Notes: a model not told the origin generated them from the letters alone. A DNA stretch of 64,000 nucleotides from a virus (IMGVR_UViG_3300037453_000316:6372-70371), one strand, 5' to 3'; counted from the stretch's first letter, positions 6,470 through 64,000 are shown. Program-made: numbers and translations.

Positions 6470-7234
6470 TTAAAATAATTTATTTTTATTTTCATTGTAC
6501 GAATCATATATTCGTTTTTTTGATATTTCAAAATAATTATAATCTTTTTCTATACCTATAAAATTTCTACCAACATTCATACAAGCAACACCACAACTAC
6601 CACTACCCATTGTATTATCCAATACAACATCATCCTCATTTGAATATGTTAGTATTAAATATTCAAGAAGTTTTATTGGTTTTTGTGTCGGATGCTCAGT
6701 TTTACCAAGAGGTTCTCTATTAAATTCTAAAATATCACAAGGGTATCTATACCCATCATCTTTATATGGTTTTATTTGTGTATTTGACTGTGCCGTTACT
6801 ATGGAATCAAACACTTTTCCTTTTTTTGGACTATTTGTTCTCAATGGGCCATTATGTTTTCTTTTTTGTGGATTATATGTACACTGTTTATCATAAAACA
6901 CAATAATATTCTCTGTAAGTTTTCCAGGTCTTTTTTTAAGAAGCATAAAATTAGTGGGTTTTTCTTTCACCCAATACAAATCATACTTATACCATTCAAA
7001 GTTAGATAATCTTAATTTTGATGAGAATGGTTCTGTTCCAAACAATAGAATTACACCATTTTCTTTTATTATTCTATTATAATGTTCCCACAATTTATCA
7101 AATGGTATAATAATATCCCAACTACATTTTGTTGTTCCATATGGAAGGTCACATAATATTAAATCTATTGAATGTTCTTTTATATCATTCATTATATCAA
7201 TACAGTCACCATTATATATATTATATTCTACCAT
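6470..7234 (-). CDS. Beta-class N4/N6 DNA methyltransferase (AT-rich insert)
   Basis: DLPYG, HPTQKP, LDNTMGSGS. Confidence 0.92.
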   Translation of the reverse strand: MVEYNIYNGDCIDIMNDIKEHSIDLILCDLPYGTTKCSWDIIIPFDKLWEHYNRIIKENGVILLFGTEPFSSKLRLSNFEWYKYDLYWVKEKPTNFMLLKKRPGKLTENIIVFYDKQCTYNPQKRKHNGPLRTNSPKKGKVFDSIVTAQSNTQIKPYKDDGYRYPCDILEFNREPLGKTEHPTQKPIKLLEYLILTYSNEDDVVLDNTMGSGSCGVACMNVGRNFIGIEKDYNYFEISKKRIYDSYNENKNKLF

Positions 7235-7893
7235 AGTGCTTCATTATTTCTTTTGTATTTTTCGTTATTTGAAATTTTATTTTCAATATCGTCAATCTCA
7301 CATTCATACCTTTTGAATTTATTTGGTATGATGTTTACTTGTCCTTCGGTATTGTCTCCACCCCTGTGTTGTCTGTTAAAAAGTTCTTCTACAACTTCGT
7401 TTTCGATGACCCAACACCTTACTCTATCATAATAAACGGCGATAAAAACAAAATAATCACACAATTTTGGTTTTATTTGTTGAAAATTTATTGTTTCGTC
7501 ACCCGTACAATCGGAAAAATATAGTAATCTGTCCGCCGTTTGTTTATCTTTTTTATCACCCTTTTTAAAAATCCTTGACGATTTGACTTCAATTTTATAC
7601 CCGTTTATGGAATCAACATCATATTCTAAAGAATGTGTATTTTTTAACAAATATTTTTTATTTTTTTCAATAATAAATTCTTCAAAATATTCACCAAACG
7701 ACCTGGGTGTCATATCAACGACAAACTCATAACTGTCTTCTCTCCTCTTATTGTATTCAGTCCACATCTTTTTGCAAACATCATAGGGTATCTTTTCGTT
7801 AAATATACTATCCAACAAAATTTCTTTAATGTCTTTTTTTTCATCTGACAATATTATACCATATTTTGACAATTCTTCCCTAATGATTTTCAT
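7228..7893 (-). CDS. Putative PD-(D/E)XK restriction endonuclease
   Basis: YDVDSINGYKIEVKSS motif; translationally coupled to the MTase; AT-rich. Confidence 0.6.
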   Translation of the reverse strand: MKIIREELSKYGIILSDEKKDIKEILLDSIFNEKIPYDVCKKMWTEYNKRREDSYEFVVDMTPRSFGEYFEEFIIEKNKKYLLKNTHSLEYDVDSINGYKIEVKSSRIFKKGDKKDKQTADRLLYFSDCTGDETINFQQIKPKLCDYFVFIAVYYDRVRCWVIENEVVEELFNRQHRGGDNTEGQVNIIPNKFKRYECEIDDIENKISNNEKYKRNNEALW

Positions 7894-7911
7894 ATCTAAA
7901 ATATAACAAAA

Positions 7912-9789
7912 CTATTTCAACAATTTTTCTTTTCTTTTATCAGCATCCTTTCCGAACCATATTTCAAGTTCATCCAGTGCCACATCATCCAATTCGTAGT
8001 AATATATCCTCGGGTTCTGGATGAGTTCCTTGTACTCGATATCTTCCAATGCACCAAGACCTTTATAGTATTCAATATCCCATTTCTTCGGGTCGTTTTT
8101 CTTGCACCATTCGTCAAAGTCACTCTTACAGTAGAACTTCTCCGATTTTCTTCCCTGCCTTGCTATCAAGACGGGTGTCTCGATTCTTGCAATCCTGTGT
8201 TCCTTGATGAGTTCCGGCCAGTAGTAGGCGAAGATGTTCAAGAGAAGCCCGGCGATATCCGCCCCGTCCGTATCGGCATCGGTCAATATATGCACCTCGT
8301 TTATACGGAGACTGTCATTGAACACTTTGGTACCACGATATATAAACGGACTTCTACCGAACTGCAAACCCATAGCGGACATAATACCTTTCAGTTCCTC
8401 GTTTGCACGAACCTTGTCCTTCGGTGCAGTCCTTACGTTCAATATCTTTCCCCTGATAGGGAACAACGCCTGTGTGTTCGGGTCTCTGAACTTACGGAAA
8501 CCTGCGGCGGCGGAATCACCCTCCGTGATGGAAAGTGATGTCTTGCTCTTCTTCAGGGTACCCGCCCATCTGCAATCAACAAGTTTCTCAACTTTCACTT
8601 TGGTAATCGCCTTGTTGGCTTCCCTCTCCGCCTTGCTTTCATCGGCGACTTTCTTCTTGTCGAGCCAGTCGGTGATTGAGTTGGTTATCTCGCTCTTGTA
8701 AATCTGTGAAAGGAACTTTTCCGGAAGTTCGATGTTCGTACCGAAGTTATTGACATCGGAAATCAGTTTCTCCTTTGTCTGTGATGAAAAACTCGGCCTG
8801 ATAATCGTAGAGTTCACAAAAAGGAAAATATGGTTTCTTATCTGACCGGATAGAATATCCGTCTTGTATTTCTTCGATATTTTCTCCCTCATATAAGGGA
8901 CAATCTGGTCCATTATATACCCGATATGTGTACCACCGTCATATGTATAGACGGAATTGACATAACTAACAAACTGGAAGTTGCCCGTGGAACTCAACGC
9001 AACACCGACCTGCCAGTTTTCATTCTCCGTATACATCAACGGATTGTTCTCGTCAAGGTACATATTGCAATAGTCCTTGAACGAGTTTATCATAACTCTT
9101 TTTCCCTGAAAGTATATTGTAAGTTTCGGATTACATCCGGCGATTTCATAAACCCTCTTCTCCATAATCCTTATGTCATCGTCCGAAATCTCCTTCATAC
9201 CGAAGCGTGACAGTTCGGGTTTATATGTTATTCTCGTAAAATGCTTTGAAGTGGATGTGATTTTCTCCTTCGAGTGTTTCTTCATATTATTTGTCCACTC
9301 CATTTCGAATTTCTTCTTCCCGTCGGCGGTCTCGACGAGAAAGGATGTGGAGAAAATATTCGAGATTTTACTTCCCAGACCATTCGTGCCAACCCAGCTC
9401 CTGTCCTCATCATCGTTATAGTTGGATGAACTACGGAGGTTTCCGAAAATCATCTGAGGGACATACATCTTTGTATCCTTGTGCATCTCAACGGGAATAC
9501 CTCCGTTGTCGAATACGGAAACGACACCTTTGGACTTGTCTATTTCAACCTTTATGGTATTGAGGGTTGTATTCGGTCTTTTGCTTTCATCCACCGAATT
9601 GGATATGATTTCGTCGAAGAGCTTGTGAAAACCCGGATTATACATAACATCCTTCTGTACAAACTTGCCATCTTCGAGAACATACTGGCTTGATTTCTCC
9701 GATACCACACTTCCGAGAAACGAAGAGGGTCTCAAAAGGGTGTGGTCTATGTCGGAAAGTGTTTTGTAAATTTCATTGACATCTTTCAT
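7912..9789 (-). CDS. gp39: DNA topoisomerase II large subunit (gp39+gp60 fused; GyrB-like)
   Basis: EIISNSVDE, GTNGLGSK, TEGDSA, PIRGKILN, DADTDG, YYKGLG. Confidence 0.95.
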   Translation of the reverse strand: MKDVNEIYKTLSDIDHTLLRPSSFLGSVVSEKSSQYVLEDGKFVQKDVMYNPGFHKLFDEIISNSVDESKRPNTTLNTIKVEIDKSKGVVSVFDNGGIPVEMHKDTKMYVPQMIFGNLRSSSNYNDDEDRSWVGTNGLGSKISNIFSTSFLVETADGKKKFEMEWTNNMKKHSKEKITSTSKHFTRITYKPELSRFGMKEISDDDIRIMEKRVYEIAGCNPKLTIYFQGKRVMINSFKDYCNMYLDENNPLMYTENENWQVGVALSSTGNFQFVSYVNSVYTYDGGTHIGYIMDQIVPYMREKISKKYKTDILSGQIRNHIFLFVNSTIIRPSFSSQTKEKLISDVNNFGTNIELPEKFLSQIYKSEITNSITDWLDKKKVADESKAEREANKAITKVKVEKLVDCRWAGTLKKSKTSLSITEGDSAAAGFRKFRDPNTQALFPIRGKILNVRTAPKDKVRANEELKGIMSAMGLQFGRSPFIYRGTKVFNDSLRINEVHILTDADTDGADIAGLLLNIFAYYWPELIKEHRIARIETPVLIARQGRKSEKFYCKSDFDEWCKKNDPKKWDIEYYKGLGALEDIEYKELIQNPRIYYYELDDVALDELEIWFGKDADKRKEKLLK

Positions 9790-9921
9790 AACCTAAATAT
9801 AACAAACTATTTCAATTTAGGTATAAAATATTATGGCTCATTTGTAATAATAAAATATATCTTTTCAAAAAAAAACTTTTTTTCCTTTTTGTTATTTTTA
9901 AACTATAAATATCTTTGAATT

Positions 9922-10629
9922 ATGGAAGTCATACTTGATGAACTGACACCCAAGGAGTTTTTCTCAAACGGAGGGGTGGTGAAAATTAAAATCGTACTGG
10001 AATCCTTGAAAAAGGAGTACAAGAGAACAAAATTCTTGTTTTATGAATACAGGGAATATCTTCGTTTTTTAAGGGGAGTGCATTTGAAATGCTTGAACAT
10101 TTATCCTAGTCTTGAAAGAAAAGAAATATACAAGAAGATAATCGAATCTTTGGAATTTTCCTGTTCTATCGGAACGAAAGTCTATATGATAGACCCAAAT
10201 TTTGACAATGTGCATTCCATTGAATTTTGCAAGTTCTACTACTGTTATGACAATGAACTGTTACCGATGAAGAACGATGATGGAAACAAGATTGACACAT
10301 ATGGTATAAAGAATGTCAATTTTTCATTGATAAACGTGGATGATACCAGATGGGAGAAATTCAGGGACCAGCGTCTTGAAAGAGGGTTCGATGATTCCGA
10401 ACTGTGGAATCTGTTTGAGACATTTTCAAAGTTTATCATCCCGAGACTGAAGGAATTTGAAAAGGGACATGTAAGCTGTCCCGTAAATATGACCGATGAA
10501 GAGTGGCATAAGATACTCAATTCTATGATAGAAGGATTTGAATCTATCATCAATGGATGTACGGACGATGAAAAGGTCGAGTATGGACTGAAACTTTTTT
10601 CAAAATATTTTTTATACCTATGGGATTAA
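9922..10629 (+). CDS. Hypothetical phage protein
   Basis: 235-aa ORF; TATCTTTG at 9910-9917 directly upstream. Confidence 0.7.
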   Translation: MEVILDELTPKEFFSNGGVVKIKIVLESLKKEYKRTKFLFYEYREYLRFLRGVHLKCLNIYPSLERKEIYKKIIESLEFSCSIGTKVYMIDPNFDNVHSIEFCKFYYCYDNELLPMKNDDGNKIDTYGIKNVNFSLINVDDTRWEKFRDQRLERGFDDSELWNLFETFSKFIIPRLKEFEKGHVSCPVNMTDEEWHKILNSMIEGFESIINGCTDDEKVEYGLKLFSKYFLYLWD

Positions 10630-11309
10630 ATATGAACAAGATAACATTTATATCGGATACACATACAAGAAACGGCTATTTGAAGGATTTACCCGGAGGC
10701 GACATAATCATCTTCGCCGGCGACTGTATGGGTTCGGGGTACAAGGTGAAGGAACTGTCGGAATTTTCAAAATGGTTCTCCAAACAGAACTACACATATA
10801 AGGTCTGTATCGCTGGAAACCACGACAGATACTGTGAGAATACCTCGAAGGATTTCGTCAAGGAGATGTTCTTCGACGAGAATGGTATAATCTACCTTCA
10901 AGACGAACTCGTTGAAATCAACGGACTGAAGATATATGGTACGCCATACCAGCCCTATTTCTGCAACTGGGCGTTCAATGTCAACGACAGTGACAAGCTC
11001 AAAAGCATATACAAGATGATACCGGACGGTGTGGACATACTCGTCACACATTGTCCTCCATACGGAATACTCGACAAGAGCCATATTCCGAGACCTTGGT
11101 CTGGACGGACCGGTGAGGAACCGCTGGGAAGCAAGGAACTCCTCGAAACCATAAATGAAATGGAAAACAAACCAAAGGTTTGTGTGTTCGGACATATACA
11201 CGGGGACGGAGGTAAAATGATAGAAATTGATGGTGTCAAATATATAAACGCATCCGTCTGTGACGAGGAATATGAACCGGTCAACGGTATAATTTCAATA
11301 GAGATATAA
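10620..11309 (+). CDS. Calcineurin-like metallophosphoesterase
   Basis: SDTH, AGD, GNHD, THCPP, GHIH motifs. Confidence 0.9.
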   Translation: MGLNMNKITFISDTHTRNGYLKDLPGGDIIIFAGDCMGSGYKVKELSEFSKWFSKQNYTYKVCIAGNHDRYCENTSKDFVKEMFFDENGIIYLQDELVEINGLKIYGTPYQPYFCNWAFNVNDSDKLKSIYKMIPDGVDILVTHCPPYGILDKSHIPRPWSGRTGEEPLGSKELLETINEMENKPKVCVFGHIHGDGGKMIEIDGVKYINASVCDEEYEPVNGIISIEI

Positions 11310-11312
11310 AAG

Positions 11313-11340
11313 AAAAGGTGAGGATTTCCTCACCTTTTTT
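11313..11340. terminator. Bidirectional intrinsic terminator
   Basis: AAAAGGTGAGG-ATTT-CCTCACCTTTT. Confidence 0.85.
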
Positions 11341-12353
11341 TATTCCGTTATCATCTCCTTGACTTTCTTATAACTGAATTTTACTTTTGCACCATTTTCT
11401 GCATAAATCTTGAACATATTTGTTAGAATCTCTTCAAACTTCTCTTTTCCGAACAGTTTTTCGAAACCTTCAATATTTTTTCTCAACTTCTTTATATTTT
11501 CAGAATCTAACACTTGCGGGTCGTCGTCTCCGAACAATAATGTCGGTTGATATCGCTGACCTACATGACCGAGTGATATGACACAATTTTCATTCTCGAA
11601 ATGAAGATTCATTTCCAGCATATAGTCGTCTTCATCATGCCAGAAGGTCGACTTCATAATCGGACGGCTCACATCGTTGAATCTGTCGTTACCCTTGAAT
11701 GTATCACCGACTTTGAGTACAAATTCCGTTAGTATTACGAGATTTTTCTCCTCCTTTCCATATTTATCCATTTCCTTATAAATGGACTTCATATCCACTC
11801 CACTTCTTATAATTGCATCTATGGTATTTTTTCTGGATTTCTCGGAATCTTTATCTGTTTTCCTAATAACTCTTTCCACTTTCAATACATATTCGGCAAA
11901 CGAGGCGAAATCAACTTTATCCTTGTTCTTCGTCTTCTTATAGTGGTCGAGAATTTCTTCGATGGCGGTTATTGCTTTTTTTTCACTTTCACTCTCTTCC
12001 TCATATACCTCACGGTCGTAACCGTATTTTTTTACTTTATTACCGTTATATTTCAGCATCTCCTTGTAGGTCTCTATCGCCTTATCCATATCCAGCTTGC
12101 CGAGCAATTCCTTGTCTGTAAGTATGTCGTTACGTTGTGCATAGGTTGTACCACGTTTTTGTTCACTTTTTCTTGACAGATTGTCTATCGTTGACTCGCT
12201 TGCGTTGGCATAGAGGATGTACAGAAGTGCAAATTCCAGATGACTGTACTGACCCAATCCTTTTGTAATTTTTTTAAGCGACTGGTTTATGTCTTCAAGT
12301 TTCCTGGATGAAGTCTCCAGAATAAATTGTTCAAAAAGTTTAATCTTTTCCAT
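11340..12353 (-). CDS. Putative internal head protein
   Basis: MEKIKLFEQFILET N-terminus; late promoter at 12379. Confidence 0.65.
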   Translation of the reverse strand: MEKIKLFEQFILETSSRKLEDINQSLKKITKGLGQYSHLEFALLYILYANASESTIDNLSRKSEQKRGTTYAQRNDILTDKELLGKLDMDKAIETYKEMLKYNGNKVKKYGYDREVYEEESESEKKAITAIEEILDHYKKTKNKDKVDFASFAEYVLKVERVIRKTDKDSEKSRKNTIDAIIRSGVDMKSIYKEMDKYGKEEKNLVILTEFVLKVGDTFKGNDRFNDVSRPIMKSTFWHDEDDYMLEMNLHFENENCVISLGHVGQRYQPTLLFGDDDPQVLDSENIKKLRKNIEGFEKLFGKEKFEEILTNMFKIYAENGAKVKFSYKKVKEMITE

Positions 12354-12378
12354 AATTATTTTTTTTTTTATGATATTA

Positions 12379-12395
12379 TATTTATGTCATAAATA
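12379..12395. promoter_or_regulatory. Palindromic pair of divergent late promoters
   Basis: TATTTATG-T-CATAAATA between divergent genes; a TATAAATA also lies at 12399-12406. Confidence 0.75.
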
Positions 12396-12419
12396 ATATA
12401 TAAATACAACTAAAGAAGA

Positions 12420-14105: not shown

Positions 14106-14120
14106 TAATAAAGATAAATT

Positions 14121-15626: not shown

Positions 15627-15627
15627 T

Positions 15628-16248
15628 ATGGATACGATTTTAAAATTTGAAGAATTTCTTCTGAATGAGAATAGGAAAAGACATATTCCGAAAGACATAC
15701 GAAAAAAAGTAATGGCGTTTCTCAAAAAGATAGACACCGACAAAATTAAAGGTCTAGTCAAAAATATTTTGAAAAATAAGGATAATTCGGTGTCTGAAAG
15801 TAAGAAAACACCGAAACTCGATATAAAGAAAGTAACGAAGTTCTTTTTTGATAGGATTGATTTTTCTATGGATGACAAATATCTTGACGATATAAATGAC
15901 GCTATTATTTCATTCACGAAATTTGCAAGAGATGAATTTAAAAAGTTGAAATCTGATGAAACGATATTCATTACATTCGCATCCATGATATATTGGGCGT
16001 ATTTCTGTTACTCGGGGGATGAGAAGTTCTTGAAGAGAAACGATATACTTGAATATTTGTTTTATGCGGCTCTTCCCGCCAAATATAATGACTTGCCCGT
16101 AGTTGATGATGACGAGGATAAGGACGAAGAGAAACAAAGGGGGTTATTCAGTTATTTCACCGATTATTTTGAAGAAGAGCTTTCAACGAGCGAGATACTT
16201 CCAAATATCAAGAAACTGGAAAAGAAGGTAGATGAAATGGGAAAATAA
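15628..16248 (+). CDS. Putative internal head protein
   Basis: MDTILKFEEFLLNEN. Confidence 0.65.
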   Translation: MDTILKFEEFLLNENRKRHIPKDIRKKVMAFLKKIDTDKIKGLVKNILKNKDNSVSESKKTPKLDIKKVTKFFFDRIDFSMDDKYLDDINDAIISFTKFARDEFKKLKSDETIFITFASMIYWAYFCYSGDEKFLKRNDILEYLFYAALPAKYNDLPVVDDDEDKDEEKQRGLFSYFTDYFEEELSTSEILPNIKKLEKKVDEMGK

Positions 16249-16250
16249 AA

Positions 16251-16283: not shown

Positions 16284-16294
16284 GATTGAGTCTC

Positions 16295-37918: not shown

Positions 37919-38758
37919 TCAATTCCAATACAGACTTTCGTATACATCACTGTTGGTTCTTCCTTCGAGAGTTCTCCTGAATGAACCGGGACGACTGTCT
38001 ATATAGACCTTGTTCTCATAGCAGTCGGAAGGTATCAGATTGTCATCGTCACCCTTTCCGTCATAACTTAAAACGAACTTTATATTCCTTGAATCCAATA
38101 TTCTCAACTGGTTGAAGAAATCCTCATATCTGACCTTTCCGAAATACCTTCCGCTTCTGGTATTATCATAGGGAGGGTCGAGATAGAGGAGGTCGTCCTC
38201 CACCGCCTCATCCATTATCTCATAATAGTCACAACACCTGAATGTCACCTCGTTTTCATTGAGAAGTTCACTCCAGTTCATAATGACCGGTTTGAGTATC
38301 TTCGGCTTTATTCCGTCACGAGTAAGATGGAATGAAGCGTTGAAGTCAAGACGCTTGTTGTATCTCGGCATTCCGTTGGTACAAGTTCTCGTCAGAAAGA
38401 AAAAGAGAACGGGGTCCCTGCTTTCGTTGAACTCCTTTCTCACTTCCTCGAAATAACTTCTTTTGGACAACCTGTCCTTTATGGAATACATTTCCTTCCA
38501 CATCCTCACATATTCGTTAAACAGACCATCGGGGTCTTCCTTAATTAACTCCCACAAGTGAATAAGGTCCGGATTGGTATCCGAACACACGAAATCCCGA
38601 GCGAATTTCTCTTCGGATACCATCAGTTGATACAGGACGGAACATCCCCCACAGAACGGTTCGTAGTATGTACGGATGTATTCGGGGAAATACGAGACTA
38701 TCTGTTCACTCTGTATCCTCTTACTTCCTGCCCATTTTACGATTGCTTGGAAATCCAT
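37919..38758 (-). CDS. Dam/D12-class N6-adenine methyltransferase
   Basis: KWAGSK, YYEPFCGG, SDTN, YLDPPY. Confidence 0.9.
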   Translation of the reverse strand: MDFQAIVKWAGSKRIQSEQIVSYFPEYIRTYYEPFCGGCSVLYQLMVSEEKFARDFVCSDTNPDLIHLWELIKEDPDGLFNEYVRMWKEMYSIKDRLSKRSYFEEVRKEFNESRDPVLFFFLTRTCTNGMPRYNKRLDFNASFHLTRDGIKPKILKPVIMNWSELLNENEVTFRCCDYYEIMDEAVEDDLLYLDPPYDNTRSGRYFGKVRYEDFFNQLRILDSRNIKFVLSYDGKGDDDNLIPSDCYENKVYIDSRPGSFRRTLEGRTNSDVYESLYWN

Positions 38759-49793: not shown

Positions 49794-50537
49794 TTAGAAC
49801 AAACCTGATGGTTCAATGTTATCTGAAACTTCCATTATTCTTTTTTTCGCCACTTCAAAATAATTCTCGTCAATTTCACATCCGATGAAACTTCTACCGT
49901 TTTTGACGGCAGCGACACCCGTTGTACCGCTTCCCATAAAACAGTCGAAAACGACATCACCGGTTTTGGTTGAATTTTTAATCATCCTCTCTATAATCGG
50001 TAATGGCTTTATTGTAGGGTGTCCGTATTTTTTCTTATCATCGGAATTGATTGGTGCCATATAGTAAGTCTTTGCGTTTTCATAACGTTCTTTCTCACCG
50101 GTCTGTGACGGGTCACAATAGCCGTTCTTACGAAAATACAGACAATATTCGGTATCGGAAAGGTATTTGTTTTTATATGTCGGTAACGCATTAGGCTTAT
50201 GCCAGCATATTATTTCAAACTTACATCCTAGTTTATTGACATAATAGTTGAAATAATCGGGGATTTGTTTCTTGTTGCACCAGAAATACACATTGATGTT
50301 CTTCATTATCCGCACAATCTCATCACCGATGGTTTCAATATCATACCCGTTGTCTATTTTCAAATCAACGAGGTCAACATTACTTTTGGTGAAGTTCTTT
50401 ACCGCATAAAGTTTACCACCATCGTGGTTCACATCCACATCATAAGGAGGGTCTGTGATTATCAAGTCGATGCTTTTATTCGACATCGACTTCATATATT
50501 TAAGACAGTCTCCTTTATATAGTTCAACACCTTTCAT
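49794..50537 (-). CDS. Beta-class DNA methyltransferase
   Basis: DPPY, HPTIKP, DCFMGSGTT; start moved to MKGVELYKGDCL at 50537. Confidence 0.92.
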   Translation of the reverse strand: MKGVELYKGDCLKYMKSMSNKSIDLIITDPPYDVDVNHDGGKLYAVKNFTKSNVDLVDLKIDNGYDIETIGDEIVRIMKNINVYFWCNKKQIPDYFNYYVNKLGCKFEIICWHKPNALPTYKNKYLSDTEYCLYFRKNGYCDPSQTGEKERYENAKTYYMAPINSDDKKKYGHPTIKPLPIIERMIKNSTKTGDVVFDCFMGSGTTGVAAVKNGRSFIGCEIDENYFEVAKKRIMEVSDNIEPSGLF

Positions 50538-50541
50538 ATTC

Positions 50542-51366
50542 TTATTTTTTAAGAACATAATCCATAATCTTATCGTCAAGTTTAGGTATGTACCTCACTT
50601 CGTATGAACCATCGTCCTTCAACCAGATAAGTCTTCTGTCGATAATTTTCAGACCGACACTTTCAAACATTTTCTGGTATAAGTTAAATTGAAGTGTATA
50701 ATGTGACAAAGCGGTGTCTTTAAAGTCACCCATAGGCGGTTTCATCCTGATGTCGTTCTTCACGGTATATTCCTTTTCAAGTTCCCTGTTGGTTTTCCAG
50801 TCACCTATTACAAAACCACTGTCTTCGGGAAACATCAAGTTCTCCTCATAGAACAGAATGTCAGCCGTTCCACAGATAGGATTTACACCTTCCATATATT
50901 TCGTCGAGAGTTTGAACTCTGCTCCCACTACATACAGTCTCTTGCTCGGGTCGAAGTTCATCTCCGTATAGAACTTCACGATTGCATCTTCTTTCGGATA
51001 TGTGGGAACCAATGTCTTATATTCCTCAATCCACTGTTTCTTGTTCGCTTCACAGATGAGTTCGGGATGACCCGCCATAACATTCGTATAACTTTCTCCA
51101 AACTCGTGTGTCCTTGAACCGGAAATCGTTGACTTCAAGTTTATAAGACGCCAGTTTTTTAATACTTCGTCCTGTGTAAGACCTATCTTTTCTGCATACG
51201 CCTTTGACTTTCCATATTCATCGAAAGGTTGTTCGTATTTCTTGATGATATGTGAAACGGGAGTGTATTCTTTTTCACCAATGAAATATTGATGACCCTC
51301 TTCAATAAAATTGATGTCACCAAATTTCTCGTTCAACATATGTCTCGTTTCTTCTATTATCTTCAT
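50542..51366 (-). CDS. PD-(D/E)XK exonuclease (RecB/Cas4-like fold)
   Basis: GSRTHEF, ICGTADIL, IGDWKTN, YTLQFNLYQ. Confidence 0.85.
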   Translation of the reverse strand: MKIIEETRHMLNEKFGDINFIEEGHQYFIGEKEYTPVSHIIKKYEQPFDEYGKSKAYAEKIGLTQDEVLKNWRLINLKSTISGSRTHEFGESYTNVMAGHPELICEANKKQWIEEYKTLVPTYPKEDAIVKFYTEMNFDPSKRLYVVGAEFKLSTKYMEGVNPICGTADILFYEENLMFPEDSGFVIGDWKTNRELEKEYTVKNDIRMKPPMGDFKDTALSHYTLQFNLYQKMFESVGLKIIDRRLIWLKDDGSYEVRYIPKLDDKIMDYVLKK

Positions 51367-51367
51367 T

Positions 51368-52955: not shown

Positions 52956-53837
52956 TTATCCGAAAGATACTGGTGAAATGGCAAGTGTTGTCTTTATGCA
53001 ACTCTCTTCATCGAAAGATGAGATTACCATTCTGTTCGGATAGAACTCAATCGTGTAGGATTTGTCGGTATCAACCCATCCGAAGAACTGCTTGTTGAAG
53101 CAAGACAGATAGTCGTCCTTTCCACCGAAGTTTTCATAATCGGAGATGTTGAGTTTCTTACAGTACATCTTTTCACAATTTGAAAATGCCTTGAAAGCGT
53201 TTTCATCATCCTCACGAGCATTCTTGAGGATGTCATTGAGTTCAAGACGTACATTCTCATCGGTTGATTCAACTTCCGACATATACACATCGTCACCATT
53301 CTTCTGGAAGAAGACACGGCAAGATTCACCATTCAGACCAAAGAGGCTCTTCATATACTTGAACTCGTTCTCACTGATACCGAAAGAGAACTGAATGTTG
53401 GTTGTATTGTTGAAGATAGCATTCTTCTTGTCTTCATCGAGAGTAAGGAAGTCGACTGCTTCGGGGTCTGCACAAGGTACATTTACATAACCTTCTCCGG
53501 TATGGATGCAAATCTTTCTTGCAAAGTTGTTATCCTCTATGTCAAATGTTATGTTGACACTTTCACCACCGACAAACTGAAGTACCGACAACAGCTTACT
53601 GGCATCACTGAACTGAATCTTAACAGACTCGTCACCACATTCATTGACATACTCTTCACAGATTTTAGCCAAATCGGATTCAACCGCCTTCAAGCCACTT
53701 CTCTGCTTGTTGTATGCGATTGATTCAAACTCACTACCCTTCACAGTTGTGAAAATCATTTTGTCCATACTTGAACTTCTCTTGATGAGATTTGTGAAAC
53801 CCTTGGTCTCAACATTCTTCAAACTTATTTTTCTCAT
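52956..53837 (-). CDS. Probable DNA sliding clamp (gp45-like)
   Basis: Size, alternating alpha/beta pattern, acidic composition and position next to gp47; no decisive motif. Confidence 0.55.
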   Translation of the reverse strand: MRKISLKNVETKGFTNLIKRSSSMDKMIFTTVKGSEFESIAYNKQRSGLKAVESDLAKICEEYVNECGDESVKIQFSDASKLLSVLQFVGGESVNITFDIEDNNFARKICIHTGEGYVNVPCADPEAVDFLTLDEDKKNAIFNNTTNIQFSFGISENEFKYMKSLFGLNGESCRVFFQKNGDDVYMSEVESTDENVRLELNDILKNAREDDENAFKAFSNCEKMYCKKLNISDYENFGGKDDYLSCFNKQFFGWVDTDKSYTIEFYPNRMVISSFDEESCIKTTLAISPVSFG

Positions 53838-53885: not shown

Positions 53886-54644
53886 TTACCATAATTGATA
53901 TGATTTATCACTTTTTGTTTTGAATATTCTTGAATTTGCAAGTTTGAAATACTTTTCCGAAATCTCAAACCCAACAAAATTGCAGTTATTTTCTATGGTG
54001 ACAACAGCCGTCGTTCCACTTCCCATAAACGGGTCAAGAACCAAATCACCTTCGTTACAACAACACTTTATGCAGTTGTCAACTATCTTCTCCGGAAACG
54101 GTGCCGGATGATTCTTATCACTCTTCGGAAGTATTGTCCAAATCTCCTTCTGAAACTCCTTATCCAATTTCGACTTGTTGAACTTCGGTTTTCCCTTTGT
54201 TATCCAATATATTCTTTCCGTATTCGGAAGAAATACATCGTTACGGATATTCGGTGAGTTTGTCCTGTCCCATATCAACTCTTGGTACAAGTCAAGACCC
54301 GACTTCAATATCAACCTCATCGGATGATAAACCTTGTTGTCATACCTTATTGGTTTGTGATTGAAGAATATAGAACCACCTTTCTTCAAAACACGGTAAC
54401 ATTCTTTCAATACATTTGATATGAACTCCTCATAGTCTTCTATCGACATATTGTCGTCACACACATCATAGTCTATCGTATATCCTTTCCAGATTGAATT
54501 ACCCGTATTCTCAACTCTTTTTCCACCGTTGAAGAATGTCTTATTGTATGGTGGTGATGTAACTATACAATCGACAGTTTCATCATCAATCATTTTCATA
54601 CCTTCAAGACAATCTTGACGATATATCTTATTGACTTCTACCAT
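53886..54644 (-). CDS. Beta-class N4-cytosine-type methyltransferase
   Basis: TSPPY, HPAPFP, DPFMGSGTT. Confidence 0.92.
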   Translation of the reverse strand: MVEVNKIYRQDCLEGMKMIDDETVDCIVTSPPYNKTFFNGGKRVENTGNSIWKGYTIDYDVCDDNMSIEDYEEFISNVLKECYRVLKKGGSIFFNHKPIRYDNKVYHPMRLILKSGLDLYQELIWDRTNSPNIRNDVFLPNTERIYWITKGKPKFNKSKLDKEFQKEIWTILPKSDKNHPAPFPEKIVDNCIKCCCNEGDLVLDPFMGSGTTAVVTIENNCNFVGFEISEKYFKLANSRIFKTKSDKSYQLW

Positions 54645-55405
54645 AACCGAAATATTTTTTCACTCTTTAATTTATCCAACCTTTTGTTTGCTATCTTGCA
54701 GTACTCCTCACTTATTTCAGTACCGATATATCTCCTGTCAAAGTTTTCACAGACATAACAAGTTGTACCAGCACCCGAAAAAGGGTCGAAGACAATATCG
54801 TTCTTGTATGTGAAAAGTTTCAATATCCTTTCGACAAGTTCCTCGGGAAACATCGCCGGATGACCGAAATCACTCATCCTGTTTTCTGGAGCAATACTCC
54901 ATTTAGCGGTGGTCCATTTCTTGAACTCGTCACCGGTTATGTCTATATTCTCCTTTTCACCTTCGTGTTTCGGATTGCTCTTATAGAAATACTCCACATA
55001 TTCCCAGGTGTATTTCAGATATGGTTTCGATGGACTTTTCCAACTTCCCCAAGCGGTGTATGCACAGTTGTAATTGTTCTTCTCCCACAATATTTCACCA
55101 CCCCAGATAAGACCGAGTTCCATCAAAACTTGTGAAACTATGTGGTGTGTAGGATAGTTCTCAGAGAAAACCGGCTGGACATTCACAAACATTCTTCCAC
55201 CATCCTTTAAAATTCTCACACACTCCTTGAAAATATCGGTAAGAAACTCACGGTATTTCACCGGTTCGAACTTATCATCATAAGTGTCGTAATTTTTTTG
55301 AAACATATAAGGGGGACTTGTTATTATACAGTCGATGGACGAATCATCGATTCTTTTCATAAGCGACAGACAGTCCTCGTTATAAATCTTGTTTAATTCA
55401 ACCAT
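54638..55405 (-). CDS. Beta-class N4-cytosine-type methyltransferase
   Basis: TSPPY, HPAMFP, DPFSGAGTT; start moved to MVELNK at 55405, behind the promoter motif at 55412. Confidence 0.92.
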   Translation of the reverse strand: MVELNKIYNEDCLSLMKRIDDSSIDCIITSPPYMFQKNYDTYDDKFEPVKYREFLTDIFKECVRILKDGGRMFVNVQPVFSENYPTHHIVSQVLMELGLIWGGEILWEKNNYNCAYTAWGSWKSPSKPYLKYTWEYVEYFYKSNPKHEGEKENIDITGDEFKKWTTAKWSIAPENRMSDFGHPAMFPEELVERILKLFTYKNDIVFDPFSGAGTTCYVCENFDRRYIGTEISEEYCKIANKRLDKLKSEKIFRLW

Positions 55406-55424
55406 ATACAGTAAATATAACAAA

Positions 55425-56195
55425 TCAAAACAAACTGACGACAGATTTTTCATCATCTATCCTTCTTGTCGCTTTCTCGAAGTATTCCCTTTCAAGTTCA
55501 AACCCGATGAAATTCCTTTTCTCCCTTATGCAAGCGACTGCGGTTGTACCGCTACCCATACAGTTGTCGAGAACCAAATCACCTTCGTTTGTATATGTCC
55601 TTACTAGATATGATATAAGTTCGACGGGTTTCTGTGTGGGGTGGAATGTCCTGCAATGCTCCTTTTCAACATCTATTATGCTTGTCGGATATTTCATTCC
55701 GGACAAATCGTCTTCTGCAAGCGAAGCGTCAAATTTACCGTAGCACTGGTTTTTCTGTTCACTCTTGACATTTCCACGAGAATGGTTCTTTGCACCCTTC
55801 ACCTTCTGTGGATTGTATGTGGGAAGTTTCTTGTAGAAAACAGCGATGTCCTCGTGGTTACGAAGAGGCATCCTGTTTGAATTTAAGAAACCGGTTGCAC
55901 GGTTTCCTTTTTTCCAGATAAGGTTATACCTCCACATCGAGGGGTTGCTCATCATAAGTTGTGCGGTGAACATACCTTGGCAAAACAATACTATTGCACC
56001 ATTGTCCTTTATAATCCTGTTATATTGTTCCCACAACTTGTCAAACGGTATTATCGTGTCCCATCTTGCACTTTCGTTTGTTTTGTTTAAAACATTATAG
56101 GGCAAATCACAGATGATACAGTCTATCGAACCGTCATCTATTCCTTTCATACCTTCAAGACAATCTTCGTTATATATTCTATTAAGTTCCAACAT
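55425..56195 (-). CDS. Beta-class DNA methyltransferase
   Basis: DLPY, HPTQKP, DNCMGSGTT. Confidence 0.92.
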   Translation of the reverse strand: MLELNRIYNEDCLEGMKGIDDGSIDCIICDLPYNVLNKTNESARWDTIIPFDKLWEQYNRIIKDNGAIVLFCQGMFTAQLMMSNPSMWRYNLIWKKGNRATGFLNSNRMPLRNHEDIAVFYKKLPTYNPQKVKGAKNHSRGNVKSEQKNQCYGKFDASLAEDDLSGMKYPTSIIDVEKEHCRTFHPTQKPVELISYLVRTYTNEGDLVLDNCMGSGTTAVACIREKRNFIGFELEREYFEKATRRIDDEKSVVSLF

Positions 56196-56259
56196 ACTCT
56201 AAATATAACAAAAAAGGGAAGATTTTTTCTTCCCTTTCTTTTTTTACCTTTATCTTTTT

Positions 56260-58467: not shown

Positions 58468-58533
58468 AATATTTCTATTTTTATTATTTAATGTATTTAT
58501 GCAAATAAAAAAGGAGACTTAAAAGTCTCCTCA

Positions 58534-59709
58534 TTACCACAACGAACTATCGTTTTCCGGCATATAACTTAGATACAAACTCTCATATACAATGGCGTTT
58601 ATTTTAAAATCGTCAATCAAGTTTTTTAATTCTCTTATATTATGACAACACAATTTATCTTTATAAAAACCACAATAATCAAACTGTAGAAAATATTTAG
58701 GAAAATAATATATTATTTCAATATTATTACTTTTACATAAATCATACTTTACTCTATCTTTTAATATATTATTTTCAAGGTTTTTATATATACCTCTATT
58801 TAAAAAATGTTGTTCTCCCTGACACTCTATTGCAATATTCAATTCATTATCAAAAAAATCTAATCTTAAATTTCTCTTATATTTCAACCAATCGAACTTT
58901 TTTTCTCTTTCAAATTTTGGAAATTCTTTATAAACTTCATTTTCAAGTTTTGATGAATTACATTTAGGGCAACCACATCCATTCAAATGTAAATTTGAAG
59001 TCTGCCAAAACTCACCGTGTTCAGGACAAATTATACAAACCTTTTCCCTTGCTGTTATATATTCAACCTTTGAATAATCATATCTATTGTTGTGAATTTT
59101 ATTTGCTTCATTTATCCAATCTTCCGTTGATTTATTCTTACCAACACACTTTGGGCAACCACACCCGTGAAGATGTTCATTTGGAGTCTGCCAAAACTCA
59201 CCATGTTCAGGACAAATTATACAAACTTTTGTTTGTGAATTTATATACTCAACTTTTGAATAATCATATTTACCGTTATGAATAGAATTGGATTTTGTTA
59301 TAAAATCAAAATTTGTAACATTTTTACCAACACATTTTGGACAGTTACACTTAATATGAACATTTGGAGTCTGCCAAAACTCACCGTGTTCAGGACAAAT
59401 TATACAAACTTTTGTGGTTATGTTTTTATAAGTGTTTTTTACTTTCGAATAATCATATTTATCACCATGTTTTTTCTTTGCTAATTCTATAAAATCAGCA
59501 TAAGTTTTCTTTTTCTTTGGGTTACATTCCGGACAACCTTGATGTTTATTAATATGTTTATAGGGTGTTTGCCAAAACTCACCGTGTTCAGGACAAATTA
59601 TACAAACTTTAGATTCACAATTTTTATATTCTACTTTCGAATAATCATATTTGTCTCCGTGTACATTTTTTGCATTCTTTATAAATGTTAAAGTTTTATC
59701 CATAAACAA
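58534..59709 (-). mobile_element. Free-standing homing-type endonuclease: zinc-ribbon repeats plus Vsr/DUF559-like nuclease
   Basis: Four KYDYSKV.Y....KVCIICPEHGEFWQTP..H...CP.C units; LRLDFF...IAIECQGEQH; AT-rich. Confidence 0.8.
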
Positions 59710-59764
59710 TAATTCTTTTATATTATTTATGAAAAATATTTATTTCAATATGGTGGTATTGTTA

Positions 59765-60643
59765 TTACCATAATGAATTTTCATTTTTAGGTATGTAATC
59801 CAAATATAAGCTTTCATATACAATGGCATTTTTATTTTTCCCTATTGTCCTCTTAAATGATGAATTACCACTCTTTATATACATATGCATAGTATAACAA
59901 TCAGATGAAATATTATATGTATTATCAACATCACCAGATTTTCCATCAAATGATAATGCAAATTTTATATTTTTATTTTTTAATAATTTTAAAAAATCAA
60001 AAAAATCATAAAAATTAATTGTATTTCTCATATACATTTGATTGGCAGATATATATGGTGGGTCCATATAGATGAAGTCACCTTCCTTCACTTCACCGAT
60101 TATCTCTTCGTATGAACGATGTATGAACTCGACATTGTGCTTTCTCAACTTTTCACTCCATTCATACAATACCGGTTTCAGTATTTCGGGTTTTATTCCG
60201 TCCCTCGTTATGTGAAAACCGTTGTTAAACTCACCCTTTCTGTTATATCTGGGCATACCGTTTGTGGTCGTCCTCATTATAAAGAAGAAAACGAGAGGGT
60301 CGTGTGTCCTGTTGTATATTTCCCGCTGCTCCTCGAAGAACCTCCTCTTCCTGTCTATGTCGTCATCTCTGTTCAGTTCCTTCCACAGAGTCTCGTATGT
60401 CTCGTATATCTCGTCCGGAAAATCCTTCACTTTGTTCCACAGTGATATGAGGTCTCCGTTTATATCCGAACAGACATACCTTTTAACCGGAATGCTTGAG
60501 TTTATAAGTCCCATAAGCATAGAGCAACCTCCACAAAAAGGTTCATAATATGTGTCTATGTGCTGTGGGAAATATTCAAGTATCTCATCACACTGACTTC
60601 TTTTGGAACCACTCCATTTTATTACGGGTTGAAACTTTACCAT
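59765..60643 (-). CDS. Dam/D12-class N6-adenine methyltransferase
   Basis: KWSGSK, YYEPFCGG, SDIN, YMDPPY; paralogue of 37919..38758. Confidence 0.9.
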   Translation of the reverse strand: MVKFQPVIKWSGSKRSQCDEILEYFPQHIDTYYEPFCGGCSMLMGLINSSIPVKRYVCSDINGDLISLWNKVKDFPDEIYETYETLWKELNRDDDIDRKRRFFEEQREIYNRTHDPLVFFFIMRTTTNGMPRYNRKGEFNNGFHITRDGIKPEILKPVLYEWSEKLRKHNVEFIHRSYEEIIGEVKEGDFIYMDPPYISANQMYMRNTINFYDFFDFLKLLKNKNIKFALSFDGKSGDVDNTYNISSDCYTMHMYIKSGNSSFKRTIGKNKNAIVYESLYLDYIPKNENSLW

Positions 60644-61368
60644 AGTGTAATTCTATCTTTAACTTCATTTATTCTTTTGGTGGCGATTTCAAAATATGAC
60701 TTATCAAGTTCAATACCGATGAAATTCCTGTTCGTATTCACACAAGCGACACCCGTGCTTCCGCTACCCATAGTGTTGTCGAGTACAGTATCGCCTTCAT
60801 CGGTATATGTCTTTATGAGATATTCAAGAAGTTCAACAGGTTTCTCGTTGGGATGTTTCTTATGATAGTTGTCAACACAGTCAAATTCAAGGAGATTATT
60901 TGGAAATCTCGTTGTGTCACCACCTTCATAATTCCTTTTGTTCCCACCATAATATATCTTTCCGTTTGAACATCCTTTCGCCGAGCAAGTCGGAATATGA
61001 CCGTCGGTTTTCTGCGGGTTATACTCGTTTTTATAAAACACACATATCTCCTCTATTTTCCTCAACGGCATCCGTTTGGCATGAAAGAAATTGGTTGTCT
61101 GATTTTTAGACCAGTACCAGCAATACTTGAAATTTGACATATTGGATGAAATCAACAAAGTTGTAAACGGTTGTGACGAAAACAGTACGACAGGACAGTT
61201 TTCCTTCCTTATCCTTTCATACTGTTTCCATAATTCATCGAATTTTATAATTTTGTCCCATTCCTGTGCCGTACATCCATAAGGAAGGTCACAAAGAACC
61301 ATATCAACACTTTCATCGGGCATCGACATCATTATGTCAAGACAGTCACCGTTATACAGTTCTACCAT
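60637..61368 (-). CDS. Beta-class DNA methyltransferase
   Basis: DLPYG, HPNEKP, DNTMGSGST. Confidence 0.92.
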   Translation of the reverse strand: MVELYNGDCLDIMMSMPDESVDMVLCDLPYGCTAQEWDKIIKFDELWKQYERIRKENCPVVLFSSQPFTTLLISSNMSNFKYCWYWSKNQTTNFFHAKRMPLRKIEEICVFYKNEYNPQKTDGHIPTCSAKGCSNGKIYYGGNKRNYEGGDTTRFPNNLLEFDCVDNYHKKHPNEKPVELLEYLIKTYTDEGDTVLDNTMGSGSTGVACVNTNRNFIGIELDKSYFEIATKRINEVKDRITLW

Positions 61369-62108
61369 AATGAAACATTGTTTTGGAGTTTCAAAATCCT
61401 GTCATTTGCCACCTTGAAATATTCTTCTTCTATCTCGAACCCGATAAAGTCCCTCTTTGTGTTGATACACGCTACGGCGGTGGTTCCGCTTCCGATACAA
61501 TTATCAAGAACGAGACCTCCCTCCGGACAATACGACTTTACAAGAAACTCCATCAGTTCGACTGGTTTCTGTGTCGGATGTATCTGGTCCTGTCTTCTCC
61601 ACTTCTGCGGGAAGTCGAGAACCGTCGATGGATGACGGGTTCCGTTGTTGATATGTTCAGTTCCCTTTATCCCGAAACCGAGATTGTTTCTCTTGTTCAG
61701 AGTATATTTCCTTTTGTAAGGGGTACCCTTCAGCATCTGCGGTTCATAATACGCCGCCGGATGACCGAACACAAGTATCATCTCGTGTTTCTTCATCGGC
61801 ATAAACTTGGCGGTGAAAGGTGAACCGCACTTCGATTTCTTCCACACCATATCGTATCTGAATAATTTCTCATTCGACAAGGCGAGACGAAAGGCAAACA
61901 TACCGGTACCGAAGAGGATTATGTTACCCTTCGGCTTTATTATCCTCTCATACTGTTCCCACAGTTTATCCACCGGAAGATTCTTATCCCATTCGAGCGA
62001 TGTCGTTTGATATGGGAGGTCACAGATGATGCAGTCCACCGAACTGTCATCAATCCGTTTCATACCATCCATACAATTCTCGTTGTAAATTTTGTTTATA
62101 TCCAACAT
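61362..62108 (-). CDS. Beta-class DNA methyltransferase
   Basis: DLPY, HPTQKP, DNCIGSGTT. Confidence 0.92.
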   Translation of the reverse strand: MLDINKIYNENCMDGMKRIDDSSVDCIICDLPYQTTSLEWDKNLPVDKLWEQYERIIKPKGNIILFGTGMFAFRLALSNEKLFRYDMVWKKSKCGSPFTAKFMPMKKHEMILVFGHPAAYYEPQMLKGTPYKRKYTLNKRNNLGFGIKGTEHINNGTRHPSTVLDFPQKWRRQDQIHPTQKPVELMEFLVKSYCPEGGLVLDNCIGSGTTAVACINTKRDFIGFEIEEEYFKVANDRILKLQNNVSLW

Positions 62109-62767
62109 TACCAGACAAAAATAAAAAGGTTAGTAAAACATATTATCTCCATAAAGAAAATCCAAGCCTTGTTGTCCACATCAGCGGAGTAGTCTTTATT
62201 GTAAACACCGTCAACCTTCATTCCTATGAGTATGAAGATGATATAAGGTATTATGGTACCCGTCACCCCGTGAATACCGGCGGTGGAACAGATATAAATG
62301 GTCGTGAGTATAATTGCTATAAGTGAATTTGCATAGTGTATCAACCTCGCCGGTCCGTATTTGAAGAACTCCTTTTTCGAAAATTTTTCCTTCAGTTCCC
62401 TCAAAAATTCCATAAAACTTTTACGTTCGACGAACTTACCACTTTCACCCTTGCATATATCCGCCCTATAACCGGAAATCTGCTTCGGCCCCGATTTATA
62501 ACAGCAGGCCGCACCGACCATAAGCAACGAGATGACTACGACGACCGGTATCCATTTCAGGCCGTCCGGAGCCTTCTCGAACCACCATATTCCGAAAGGG
62601 ACACTCGTCATTATAGACCATGCCGCAAACAACCAGTCCCACTTGGAAGGAAGTATATAATAGGTTTCGCTCACTGAAACCGGCACACCATACTTGAACA
62701 GTATGAAAATAATGTATGCAAAGCAACATACGATTGAAATAATCGGTAATGAAATCATAATATTCAC
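62108..62767 (-). CDS. Multi-pass membrane protein
   Basis: Five to six hydrophobic helices. Confidence 0.75.
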   Translation of the reverse strand: MNIMISLPIISIVCCFAYIIFILFKYGVPVSVSETYYILPSKWDWLFAAWSIMTSVPFGIWWFEKAPDGLKWIPVVVVISLLMVGAACCYKSGPKQISGYRADICKGESGKFVERKSFMEFLRELKEKFSKKEFFKYGPARLIHYANSLIAIILTTIYICSTAGIHGVTGTIIPYIIFILIGMKVDGVYNKDYSADVDNKAWIFFMEIICFTNLFIFVW

Positions 62768-62931
62768 TTTTTATTTTTTCTTATCAACTTGTTTGTAAAT
62801 ATGGTTACACAGACAGCAATCACACAGGCGAGAAAACATACCAGTCCTGCAATCCAAGTTCCCATTAAAAGATATACTATCAGTCCGAATATGACCGAAA
62901 GAAACAACAATACTATAATTAAAGCTATCAT
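62764..62931 (-). CDS. Small two-TM membrane protein (55 aa, below the track cut-off)
   Basis: Hand translation MIALIIVLLFLSVIFGLIVYLLMGTWIAGLVCFLACVIAVCVTIFTNKLIRKNKK; overlaps both neighbours. Confidence 0.7.
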   Translation of the reverse strand: MIALIIVLLFLSVIFGLIVYLLMGTWIAGLVCFLACVIAVCVTIFTNKLIRKNKK

Positions 62932-63671
62932 CAGAAAAGTTTTATTTCATTATTTATATGATGTATTCTGTCCTCCGCTATCCGGAAATATTTCCCATCG
63001 ACTTCAAAACCGATAAAATTACGGTTCAAGTTAAGGCAAGCGACACCGGTACTTCCACTACCCATACAACCGTCAAGAACGGTATCACCTTCATTGGAAG
63101 ACATTTCTATTATCCGTTCCATCAGCTTTACGGGTTTCTGTGTCGGATGTTCGGTCTTTTCCTTCGAGTTGTGGGGAAGGGCGGATATGTCGGTCCACAC
63201 GTCGGACAGACTGACACCTTCCTTCAACATACCTTCCGTATACTCCTTCCGTTTCGTGTCGGGTTTTATCTTGATGTTGTTGAAGACCGGTTCATCACCA
63301 CCTTTGACATAATATGCTATCGGTTCATAACCGGAAGCCAAGGCGTGACCCCTCGTATTGTTGAAACCCCTTTTTCTCGCCCAGATGATTATTCTTTTTT
63401 CCATAAGATACCTGTCGAGTATATTGCAGATTTTCCTGTTCAGTTGTCTTGATGTAAACAGGAAAACACTCCCACCGGGTTTCAAAACCCTTACATATTG
63501 GATGACAAGGGATTCTACCCATTTAAGATAGTCATCCTCGTTCTCCCACTTGTTGTCAAAGTCGGCATCCACCACACCGAAGTAAGGTAAATCACAGACA
63601 ACACAATCTATTGAATTGTCTTTCAACCTGTTTCTTATTCCGGTTATACAGTCTTCGTTATACAGTTCCAT
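62931..63671 (-). CDS. Beta-class DNA methyltransferase
   Basis: DLPY, HPTQKP, DGCMGSGST. Confidence 0.92.
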   Translation of the reverse strand: MELYNEDCITGIRNRLKDNSIDCVVCDLPYFGVVDADFDNKWENEDDYLKWVESLVIQYVRVLKPGGSVFLFTSRQLNRKICNILDRYLMEKRIIIWARKRGFNNTRGHALASGYEPIAYYVKGGDEPVFNNIKIKPDTKRKEYTEGMLKEGVSLSDVWTDISALPHNSKEKTEHPTQKPVKLMERIIEMSSNEGDTVLDGCMGSGSTGVACLNLNRNFIGFEVDGKYFRIAEDRIHHINNEIKLF

Positions 63672-63729
63672 ACAATTAAATATAACAAAAACGAGTTTCC
63701 ATCAAAAAAGAGGTCAATTTAACCTCTTT

Positions 63730-64000
63730 TTACCACAACGAAATCTCTTCACATCTTCCGTCGAACCTCTCGGTCTGACCGGTCTCCCAGTTCATCACGA
63801 TGACCGGAATTTCCGTTTCCGGCAGACACATCGTCACACCGTCCATCCTGAAAATGTTCCAGGATATGATTTCCGCCCATTTCTCCACATCTGTGGGTTC
63901 TTTACCGAACTTGGCGATAAAACTCTCTATAACGGCGGACAATACATTTCTACGGGCGAGGAACAAGGAATCTTCCTGCCATTCGTATCCGTATGTTGAC
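63730..64000 (-). CDS. 3' end of an N6-adenine methyltransferase (R-M M-subunit-like), truncated by the window edge
   Basis: Frame open from 63999: STYGYEWQEDSLFLARRNVL...IISWNIFRMDG. Confidence 0.7.
   Translation of the reverse strand, partial: STYGYEWQEDSLFLARRNVLSAVIESFIAKFGKEPTDVEKWAEIISWNIFRMDGVTMCLPETEIPVIVMNWETGQTERFDGRCEEISLW

Follow-up and report, generated by a model that had tools for sequence, protein, structure and literature searches.

The stretch of DNA analysed here (IMGVR_UViG_3300037453_000316:6372-70371, hereafter the window) covers 64 kb of a 70-kb viral contig. It belongs to a T4-like jumbo myovirus, with a gp23-type capsid, a tail sheath, a split topoisomerase II, a DnaB-like helicase and UvsX/RecA-like genes. 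It also carries a series of DNA methyltransferase (MTase) genes, most of whose products end in the same two residues, a leucine followed by a tryptophan or a phenylalanine at the free carboxyl end (L-[WF]-COOH), and the meaning of this ending, in relation to a neighbouring gene for a predicted sliding clamp, is the subject of this work. No near match to the window was found among isolate phages (megablast, 24 kb queried), and both close and distant relatives were found in IMG/VR. Two of these were taken whole for genome-wide counts of the ending: G001 (363 kb, 96% complete), whose clamp is 90% identical to that of the window, and G005 (345 kb), whose clamp is about 48-49% identical. Gene sets were greedy calls of open reading frames (ORFs), in which C-termini depend on stop codons alone.

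In the window, L-[WF]-COOH ends 11 of the 74 ORFs, where 0.34 would be expected (binomial P 6e-14), and it is associated with MTase rather than non-MTase ORFs (Fisher P 3e-8). These eleven ORFs encode eight beta-class MTases of the PF01555 family, one Dam-class MTase, one homing endonuclease and one orphan ORF product, and an incomplete gene at the edge of the window, for a gamma-class MTase-like protein, makes a twelfth case; all are on the minus strand. The eight PF01555 proteins are full-length matches with 92-177 bits (cut-off 26.7) and E values from 9e-26 to 7e-52, with an N-terminal motif IV of the form [DS][PL]PY. They are encoded at 6470-7234 (DLPY, E 2e-27, ending KNKLF), 49794-50579 (DPPY, E 2e-34, PSGLF), 53886-54644 (an N4/N6 MTase with SPPY, E 6e-47, SYQLW), 54638-55456 (SPPY, E 3e-47, IFRLW), 55425-56195 (DLPY, E 1e-34, VVSLF), 60637-61368 (DLPY, E 9e-26, RITLW), 61362-62108 (DLPY, E 2e-34, NVSLW) and 62931-63671 (DLPY, E 7e-52, EIKLF). 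The Dam-class (alpha) N6A MTase, Dam1, lies at 59765-60643 (PF02086, E 2e-35) and ends ENSLW. The partial gamma-like gene at 63730-63999 ends EISLW, the orphan ORF at 7228-7893 ends NEALW and the homing endonuclease at 58534-59709 ends DSSLW. All of these C-termini except the last had been listed in a first-pass annotation of the window, which had also counted ten of twelve MTases as tailed, had described the tail as common to several MTase classes and had placed the densest cluster of tailed MTases against a probable clamp gene at 52956. On re-examination each listed C-terminus was indeed present, the cluster does adjoin the 52956 gene, and the tail is found on three unrelated folds, namely beta (PF01555), alpha (Dam) and gamma-like, the last being assigned by fold only.

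A short hydrophobic or aromatic peptide at a free C-terminus is thus carried by ten of the twelve MTase or MTase-like genes of the window. The exceptions are a second Dam-class MTase, Dam2 (37919-38758, minus strand, PF02086, E 1e-33), and a C5 cytosine MTase (2495-3583, minus strand, PF00145, E 1e-42). Dam2 ends YESLYWN in the window and in G001 and YESLYVN in G005, and Dam1 runs 11 residues past the point at which Dam2 stops (the alignment ends at YESLY). The C5 enzyme ends SKIKK in the window and in G001. Six of the twelve window tails have the form x-[ST]-L-[FW]. None of them has a glutamine at position -5, and they do not show the bacterial beta-clamp motif QL[SD]LF; nor do they show the PCNA-interacting peptide (PIP) box, Qxx[LIM]xx[FY][FY], as they have a single aromatic residue and no conserved glutamine.

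The clamp gene itself (52956-53837, minus strand) encodes 293 amino acids (aa), and its identification as a PCNA/gp45-type sliding clamp, suspected in the first-pass annotation, was borne out by its fold. An AlphaFold2 (AF2) model built from 36 homologues, as a monomer, reached a mean predicted local distance difference test score (pLDDT) of 89.3 and a predicted template-modelling score (pTM) of 0.87. Foldseek matched this model over its full length to archaeal and eukaryotic PCNAs (prob 1.0, E 3e-14 to 2e-12), with target-normalised template-modelling (TM) scores of 0.73-0.77 to many PCNAs, and the model has two repeated beta-alpha-beta-beta-beta domains. The sequence had no match in Pfam (PF00705, PF02747, PF09116 and PF02916 included), PHROG or NCBIfam; a search of the Atlas gave leads only, to gp45 and PCNA clusters, and a single phmmer match in the PDB, to an aminopeptidase, was rejected as spurious. 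The gene order recalls that around gene 45 of T4, since a gp47/SbcD-like Metallophos gene lies next to the clamp gene, and G001 (E 5e-63) and G005 (E 5e-62) encode a gp44-like clamp loader.

The gene for the replicative family-B polymerase lies just outside the end of the window and was read in relatives. In G001 it encodes 981 aa (Pfam), stands directly beyond the MTase cluster and ends EGLW. Polymerases end GLW in all eight related loci, whose clamps are 44-98% identical to that of the window, including two in which the polymerase is split. Among 120 polymerase homologues, 118 end in L-[WF] (108 GLW, 6 PLF, 3 SLF and 1 TLW), and the presence of PLF and SLF beside GLW indicates that tryptophan and phenylalanine are interchangeable there as they are in the MTases. 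From its position and by analogy with T4 gp43, we infer that L-[WF]-COOH is the polymerase-clamp peptide of this clade. In distant relatives the gene order is polymerase, a 254-aa gamma-like gene and clamp, and comparison of gene orders indicates that the MTase cluster of the window lineage is an insertion into this polymerase-gamma-clamp replication module. The polymerase genes that are split in some relatives are found at L033:914-2389 and L038:1678-6507, and several polymerase homologues of 539-540 aa (P0307, P0404-P0407) have an intein-type Pfam match, PF14890; given these matches and the split genes, mobile elements appear to target the polymerase.

The gamma-like gene at 63730 encodes the C-terminal 89 aa of a protein whose full-length relatives (227-254 aa, orthologue alignment A4) are the product of a core gene adjoining the polymerase gene. 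In distant relatives it stands between the polymerase and clamp genes, and its product ends SLF or ALF. An AF2 model of an orthologue had a pLDDT of 70 overall and below 50 in the last 13 residues, and was matched by VIA to the MTase domain of MmeI (Z 10.0), then to LlaBIII, PglX and type I M subunits. The family has no Pfam match and no canonical NPPY in alignment A4, and Foldseek found nothing for the 254-aa model at E <= 0.001 (E >0.1), the MTase-domain match coming from VIA-align alone; given a fold match with no Pfam match, "MTase" is here a fold-level call only. In the same alignment, EVFTP and TCGEAPY replace the usual motifs X and I, and the family may consist of non-canonical DNA modifiers or of inactive adaptors.

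The ending is not peculiar to the window. It terminates 16 of the 434 ORFs of G001 and 14 of the 451 ORFs of G005, about 2.1 being expected in each, and the families other than beta-class MTases that keep it in both genomes are the polymerase, the 254-aa gamma-like protein and two further families of 194/199 and 159/175 aa. A phrog_757 MTase of G001, encoded far from the cluster, also ends in L-[WF]. The tail is present on 30 of the 38 distinct PF01555 ORFs of the clade, versus 9 of 102 general homologues (79% vs 9%, Fisher P 2e-15), the latter being the single-domain homologues that ranked best among 1.8 billion representatives. In the window MTases the Pfam domain stops 10-15 residues short of the C-terminus, and beyond the last helix the tailed MTases of the clade have 10-13 residues, versus 2-7 in tailless ones. 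We rejected the possibility that the tail belongs to the MTase fold, as the domain ends earlier and tailless members stop after the last helix. These 10-13 residues behave as a divergent, flexible linker, varying among orthologues as well as among paralogues, while the last two residues are kept: DRITLW corresponds to ENENKLW and NNVSLW to NNETLF. Likewise, orthologues of the 55425 MTase end VIKLF and IIKLF, and the G001 orthologue of the 60637 MTase still ends NKLW after a divergent linker; an ORF of L032 that is related to the latter enzyme and starts MFELYNGD has no tail. Taken together, the sequence comparisons suggest that the tail is an add-on under selection, explained neither by ancestry nor by overlapping genes.

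We consider it probable that the tails of the MTases dock on the phage's own sliding clamp. L-[WF]-COOH on a short variable linker would be a docking peptide for the PCNA/gp45-like clamp; the family-B polymerase would carry it where T4 gp43 has SLDFLFG, and the same ending would have been added repeatedly to accessory DNA MTases of three unrelated folds. Clamps loaded at the fork or left on new DNA may then recruit the MTases, and nascent phage DNA could be methylated at many sites at once, before host restriction enzymes act; physical binding to the clamp and co-replicative methylation are what we infer from the tail. The first-pass annotation had already proposed that the MTases ride the clamp, and the present comparisons support this interpretation through the clamp fold of the 52956 product, the L-[WF] end of the polymerase, the three MTase folds that share the tail and its persistence where genes do not overlap. 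Because of the analogy with the polymerase, the cognate clamp is most likely the PCNA-like clamp of the phage rather than the beta-clamp of the host.

The closest parallel is T4 itself, where gp43 ends SLDFLFG and gp55 ends SLDFLYEAND, these C-termini being interchangeable gp45-binding epitopes carried on divergent linkers (PMC2988020). As in gp43, gp55 and gp33 of T4 and RB69, a short hydrophobic C-terminal peptide on a divergent linker is common here to the polymerase and to other putative clients. A putative trimeric-type clamp is likewise encoded by the phage, and the polymerase-clamp-gp47 neighbourhood is similar, the window clamp having been modelled as a monomer. By contrast, L-[WF] stands at the very end of the protein, often after S, T or G, unlike the SLDFL[FY] of T4 with its extra residues; the predicted clients are about ten DNA MTases per genome instead of transcription factors; and the clamp, at 293 aa, has a fold nearer to PCNA in the search.

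A modifying enzyme on a phage clamp would have a precedent, as the binding of T4 alpha-glucosyltransferase (alpha-GT) to gp45 was reportedly described by Sommer et al. in 2004. The MTases of the window would similarly be phage DNA-modifying enzymes on the phage clamp; they differ in being methyltransferases and in forming a whole armoury with one tag, whereas alpha-GT is a single glucosyltransferase, and one that ends in FDIITK, with no terminal peptide of the clamp-binding type. When the binding was tested again, alpha-GT co-purified with gp45, and the interaction has been proposed to couple protective modification to replication (PMC13216743). In eukaryotes, DNMT1 binds PCNA and is recruited to newly replicated DNA by a clamp-binding peptide (PMC9690074). 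Recruitment of a DNA methyltransferase through such a peptide is also what is predicted here, although the methylation would give anti-restriction protection, unlike the maintenance methylation of DNMT1. The PIP box of DNMT1 is internal and N-terminal, and it differs from the window tails, which lack the glutamine at -5 and have one aromatic residue. As for bacterial clamps, x-[ST]-L-[FW] at the C-terminus is similar to the last three residues of QL[SD]LF, but the conserved glutamine is missing and the proposed partner is PCNA-like rather than a DnaN-type dimer.

This last resemblance leads to a different reading, in which the tail binds another hub or serves another purpose, the candidates being the host beta-clamp, the phage single-stranded DNA-binding protein (SSB), the helicase, the clamp loader, or a signal for degradation, localisation or packaging. 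Besides the similarity of xSL[FW] to the end of QL[SD]LF, in general PF01555 homologues the C-terminus is often formed by Q..[ST]LF or lies a few residues beyond it, and terminal aromatic residues mediate contacts of the SSB-tail type (the DnaB helicase of an unrelated phage considered below ends DDDSDRPF). We nevertheless judge it unlikely. The constant bearer of the ending is a T4-type family-B polymerase, whose C-terminus binds the clamp in T4 and RB69; a clamp gene is present in the phage itself and a gene for a gp44-like loader in the relatives G001 and G005; the glutamine at -5 that marks beta-clamp motifs is absent from every window tail; and it is difficult to see why a replicative polymerase should carry a degron or a packaging tag. 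On another reading the tail reflects shared ancestry: the PF01555 ancestor would have had a terminal LF from the outset, and duplications within the phage would have multiplied it without the ending having any particular role here. The general homologues do end in LF more often than expected (9 of 102 vs 0.8), 7 more have LF inside the last ten residues, and the eight paralogues of the window can be aligned from end to end; a cluster look-up of the LF-tailed general homologues returned almost no names. Against this, terminal LW was found in none of the 102, the clade is tailed far more often than that set, and the paralogues, only 26-50% identical, all keep L[WF] on linkers that vary. The ending is moreover shared by unrelated folds, namely the Dam-class MTase, the gamma-like protein, the phrog_757 MTase of G001 and the polymerase, and ancestry alone is in our view very improbable.

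It could also be argued that the tail is a by-product of gene junctions, in which the L-W-stop sequence TTATGGTAR holds the ATG of the next gene and reflects translational coupling, not a protein motif. The ATGGTAR overlaps that the first-pass annotation had pointed out at 7234, 54644, 60643 and 61368 are real, several junctions in G001 and G005 use the same arrangement, and in G005 it gives LW ends to three ORFs of no assigned identity. In the window, the LW-stop overlaps the start of the next gene at the ends of the orphan ORF (with the 6470 MTase), of the 54638 MTase, of the 60637 MTase (with the Dam gene) and of the 61362 MTase. The other seven L-[WF] ends of the window have no overlapping downstream start: overlap accounts for only 4 of 11 cases in the window, 2 of 16 in G001 and 4 of 14 in G005, and it explains no LF end, nor the LW of the polymerase, of Dam1, of the gamma-like protein or of the 53886 MTase, in whose stop context (TTATGGTAA) no ORF begins and which hence has no downstream overlap. 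The first-pass annotation had accepted that its proposal would fall if the motif survived in homologues only where start codons overlap; the tail is in fact kept in relatives with no such overlap, as in the 54638 orthologues of G001 and L001, which end FQLW, and in the 61362 orthologue of L031, which stays aromatic as NVSLW gives way to NNETLF. In addition, downstream genes begin with M-V only at overlaps and with M-L or M-I elsewhere, which suggests that the start codon exploited a pre-existing LW-stop. As a full explanation the junction is thus largely refuted and, to our mind, scarcely credible, and isolated tails, for example that of the orphan ORF at 7228, may be due to it.

These junctions, with four window tails and three G005 ORFs that coincide with them, are nonetheless among the points that weigh against docking on the phage clamp, and there are others. 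The motif is only two residues with a weak preference at -3 and -4, and, as it is this short, part of its specificity must come from standing at a free carboxyl terminus. Some 7 or 8 PF01555 MTases of the clade, Dam2 and the C5 MTase are tailless, which means that the tail is not needed for methylation. Among the L[WF]-ended ORFs of G001 there was no match to a ligase or RNase H family, and those genes were not located; no late sigma factor was identified either. Finally, binding of alpha-GT to the clamp was not the main determinant of modification levels in T4, expression level mattering more (PMC13216743), which implies that a tether, even if real, may have a modest effect.

If the tails do bind, about ten MTases would be delivered to the DNA during its synthesis, ahead of host restriction enzymes, each through the two-residue tag of the polymerase itself. 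This would be a new class of client for phage sliding clamps, and a counterpart in viruses of prokaryotes to the DNMT1-PCNA pair. Polymerase, late transcription factors, ligase and one glucosyltransferase are among the phage clamp clients known so far; a literature search with little subscription-journal coverage found no paper in which phage methyltransferases are tethered to a clamp. The tag would also offer a sequence rule for recognising clamp clients in uncultured jumbo phages, and it suggests transplantable tags for clamp-directed enzymes.

A broader idea, which we hold tentatively and with slightly more doubt than confidence, is that clamp-docking tails are a general, hitherto undescribed link between replication and the protective modification of phage DNA. 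Phages unrelated to one another would have attached to their orphan MTases, of several folds, the peptide that their own clamp recognises, L-[WF] for the PCNA-like clamp considered here and QxxLF for beta-clamps of phage or host. If so, one could predict the clamp partner of a phage MTase from its C-terminus, and all the enzymes of an armoury might be tethered together. An unrelated phage (ENA ERZ12302813 NODE_397, 74 kb; L071:4343-12127) encodes a beta-clamp and the DnaB helicase mentioned above, whose DDDSDRPF end is SSB-tail-like. Its beta-clamp gene is directly preceded by those of two PF01555 MTases with the ends QQKLF and SQPTLF, the latter enzyme being one of the general homologues noted above, and a piece of a C5 MTase ends QLNLFG, a canonical beta-clamp motif. 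This phage, as one example and not a survey, points to a wider habit of placing motif-bearing MTases beside a clamp gene.

The tag flags the 194/199-aa and 159/175-aa proteins as candidate further clamp clients, on the strength of their endings. The former is encoded at L018:12476-13075 in G001 and L039:5103-5687 in G005, beside the polymerase gene and diverging from it, and its ending is [QK]LF in every case; an Atlas search (0.85) gave a lead to RteC only, a profile search of the PDB found nothing, and Pfam and NCBIfam gave nothing credible. The latter corresponds to phrog_35599 and keeps the L-[WF] ending.

Two of the tailed ORFs of the window call for separate treatment. The HNH/DUF723 homing endonuclease at 58534-59709 (minus strand, phrog_559, E 4e-85) is absent from L001 and L002, and over its last 22 residues it matches without a difference the C-terminus of the L001 Dam, whose gene is uninterrupted (L001:4752-5627). 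This comparison indicates that the endonuclease gene entered the Dam gene at its 3' end and became fused in frame to the old Dam tail, which it would have inherited during homing. It was rejected as an independent case of the tail, this tail being the old Dam 3' end. The identity between the Dam proteins of the window and of L001 falls from about 98% to about 70% after residue 180, a sharp drop that looks like a co-conversion tract.

The orphan ORF at 7228-7893 (minus strand, 221 aa), described in the first-pass annotation as a putative restriction enzyme, has a D...EVK nuclease-like motif read from its translation. It had no match in Pfam, PHROG or NCBIfam and no relative in viral contigs, and one homologue (91% identity) was found among 5.8 billion proteins. 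Its LW is inseparable from the start-codon overlap with the 6470 MTase, and its tail therefore cannot be interpreted. Together these two genes form a cassette (6470-7893) wedged between the gyrase A-like and gyrase B-like subunit genes of topoisomerase II. The ORF has no counterpart in G001, and the best G001 match of the 6470 MTase, 47% identical, lies in the main cluster; as the cassette was not found in G001, it looks recently acquired.

Two further observations concern methylation in the relatives. A 240-aa ORF of G001 (G001:130900-131622, L017:16900-17622) is matched by only the last 60% of PF01555 (profile positions 89-221), its N-terminal part being unrelated, yet it ends FELF; it may be a truncated or chimeric MTase. 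A short protein resembling S-adenosylmethionine (SAM) synthetase, of 269-270 aa, is encoded a few genes from the clamp in distant relatives (L039:14752-15561 and L033:13154-13966; PF00438, E 5e-10 and 2e-10, respectively), and is a possible source of SAM for heavy methylation; it ends GLW in L033 and GLI in the others.

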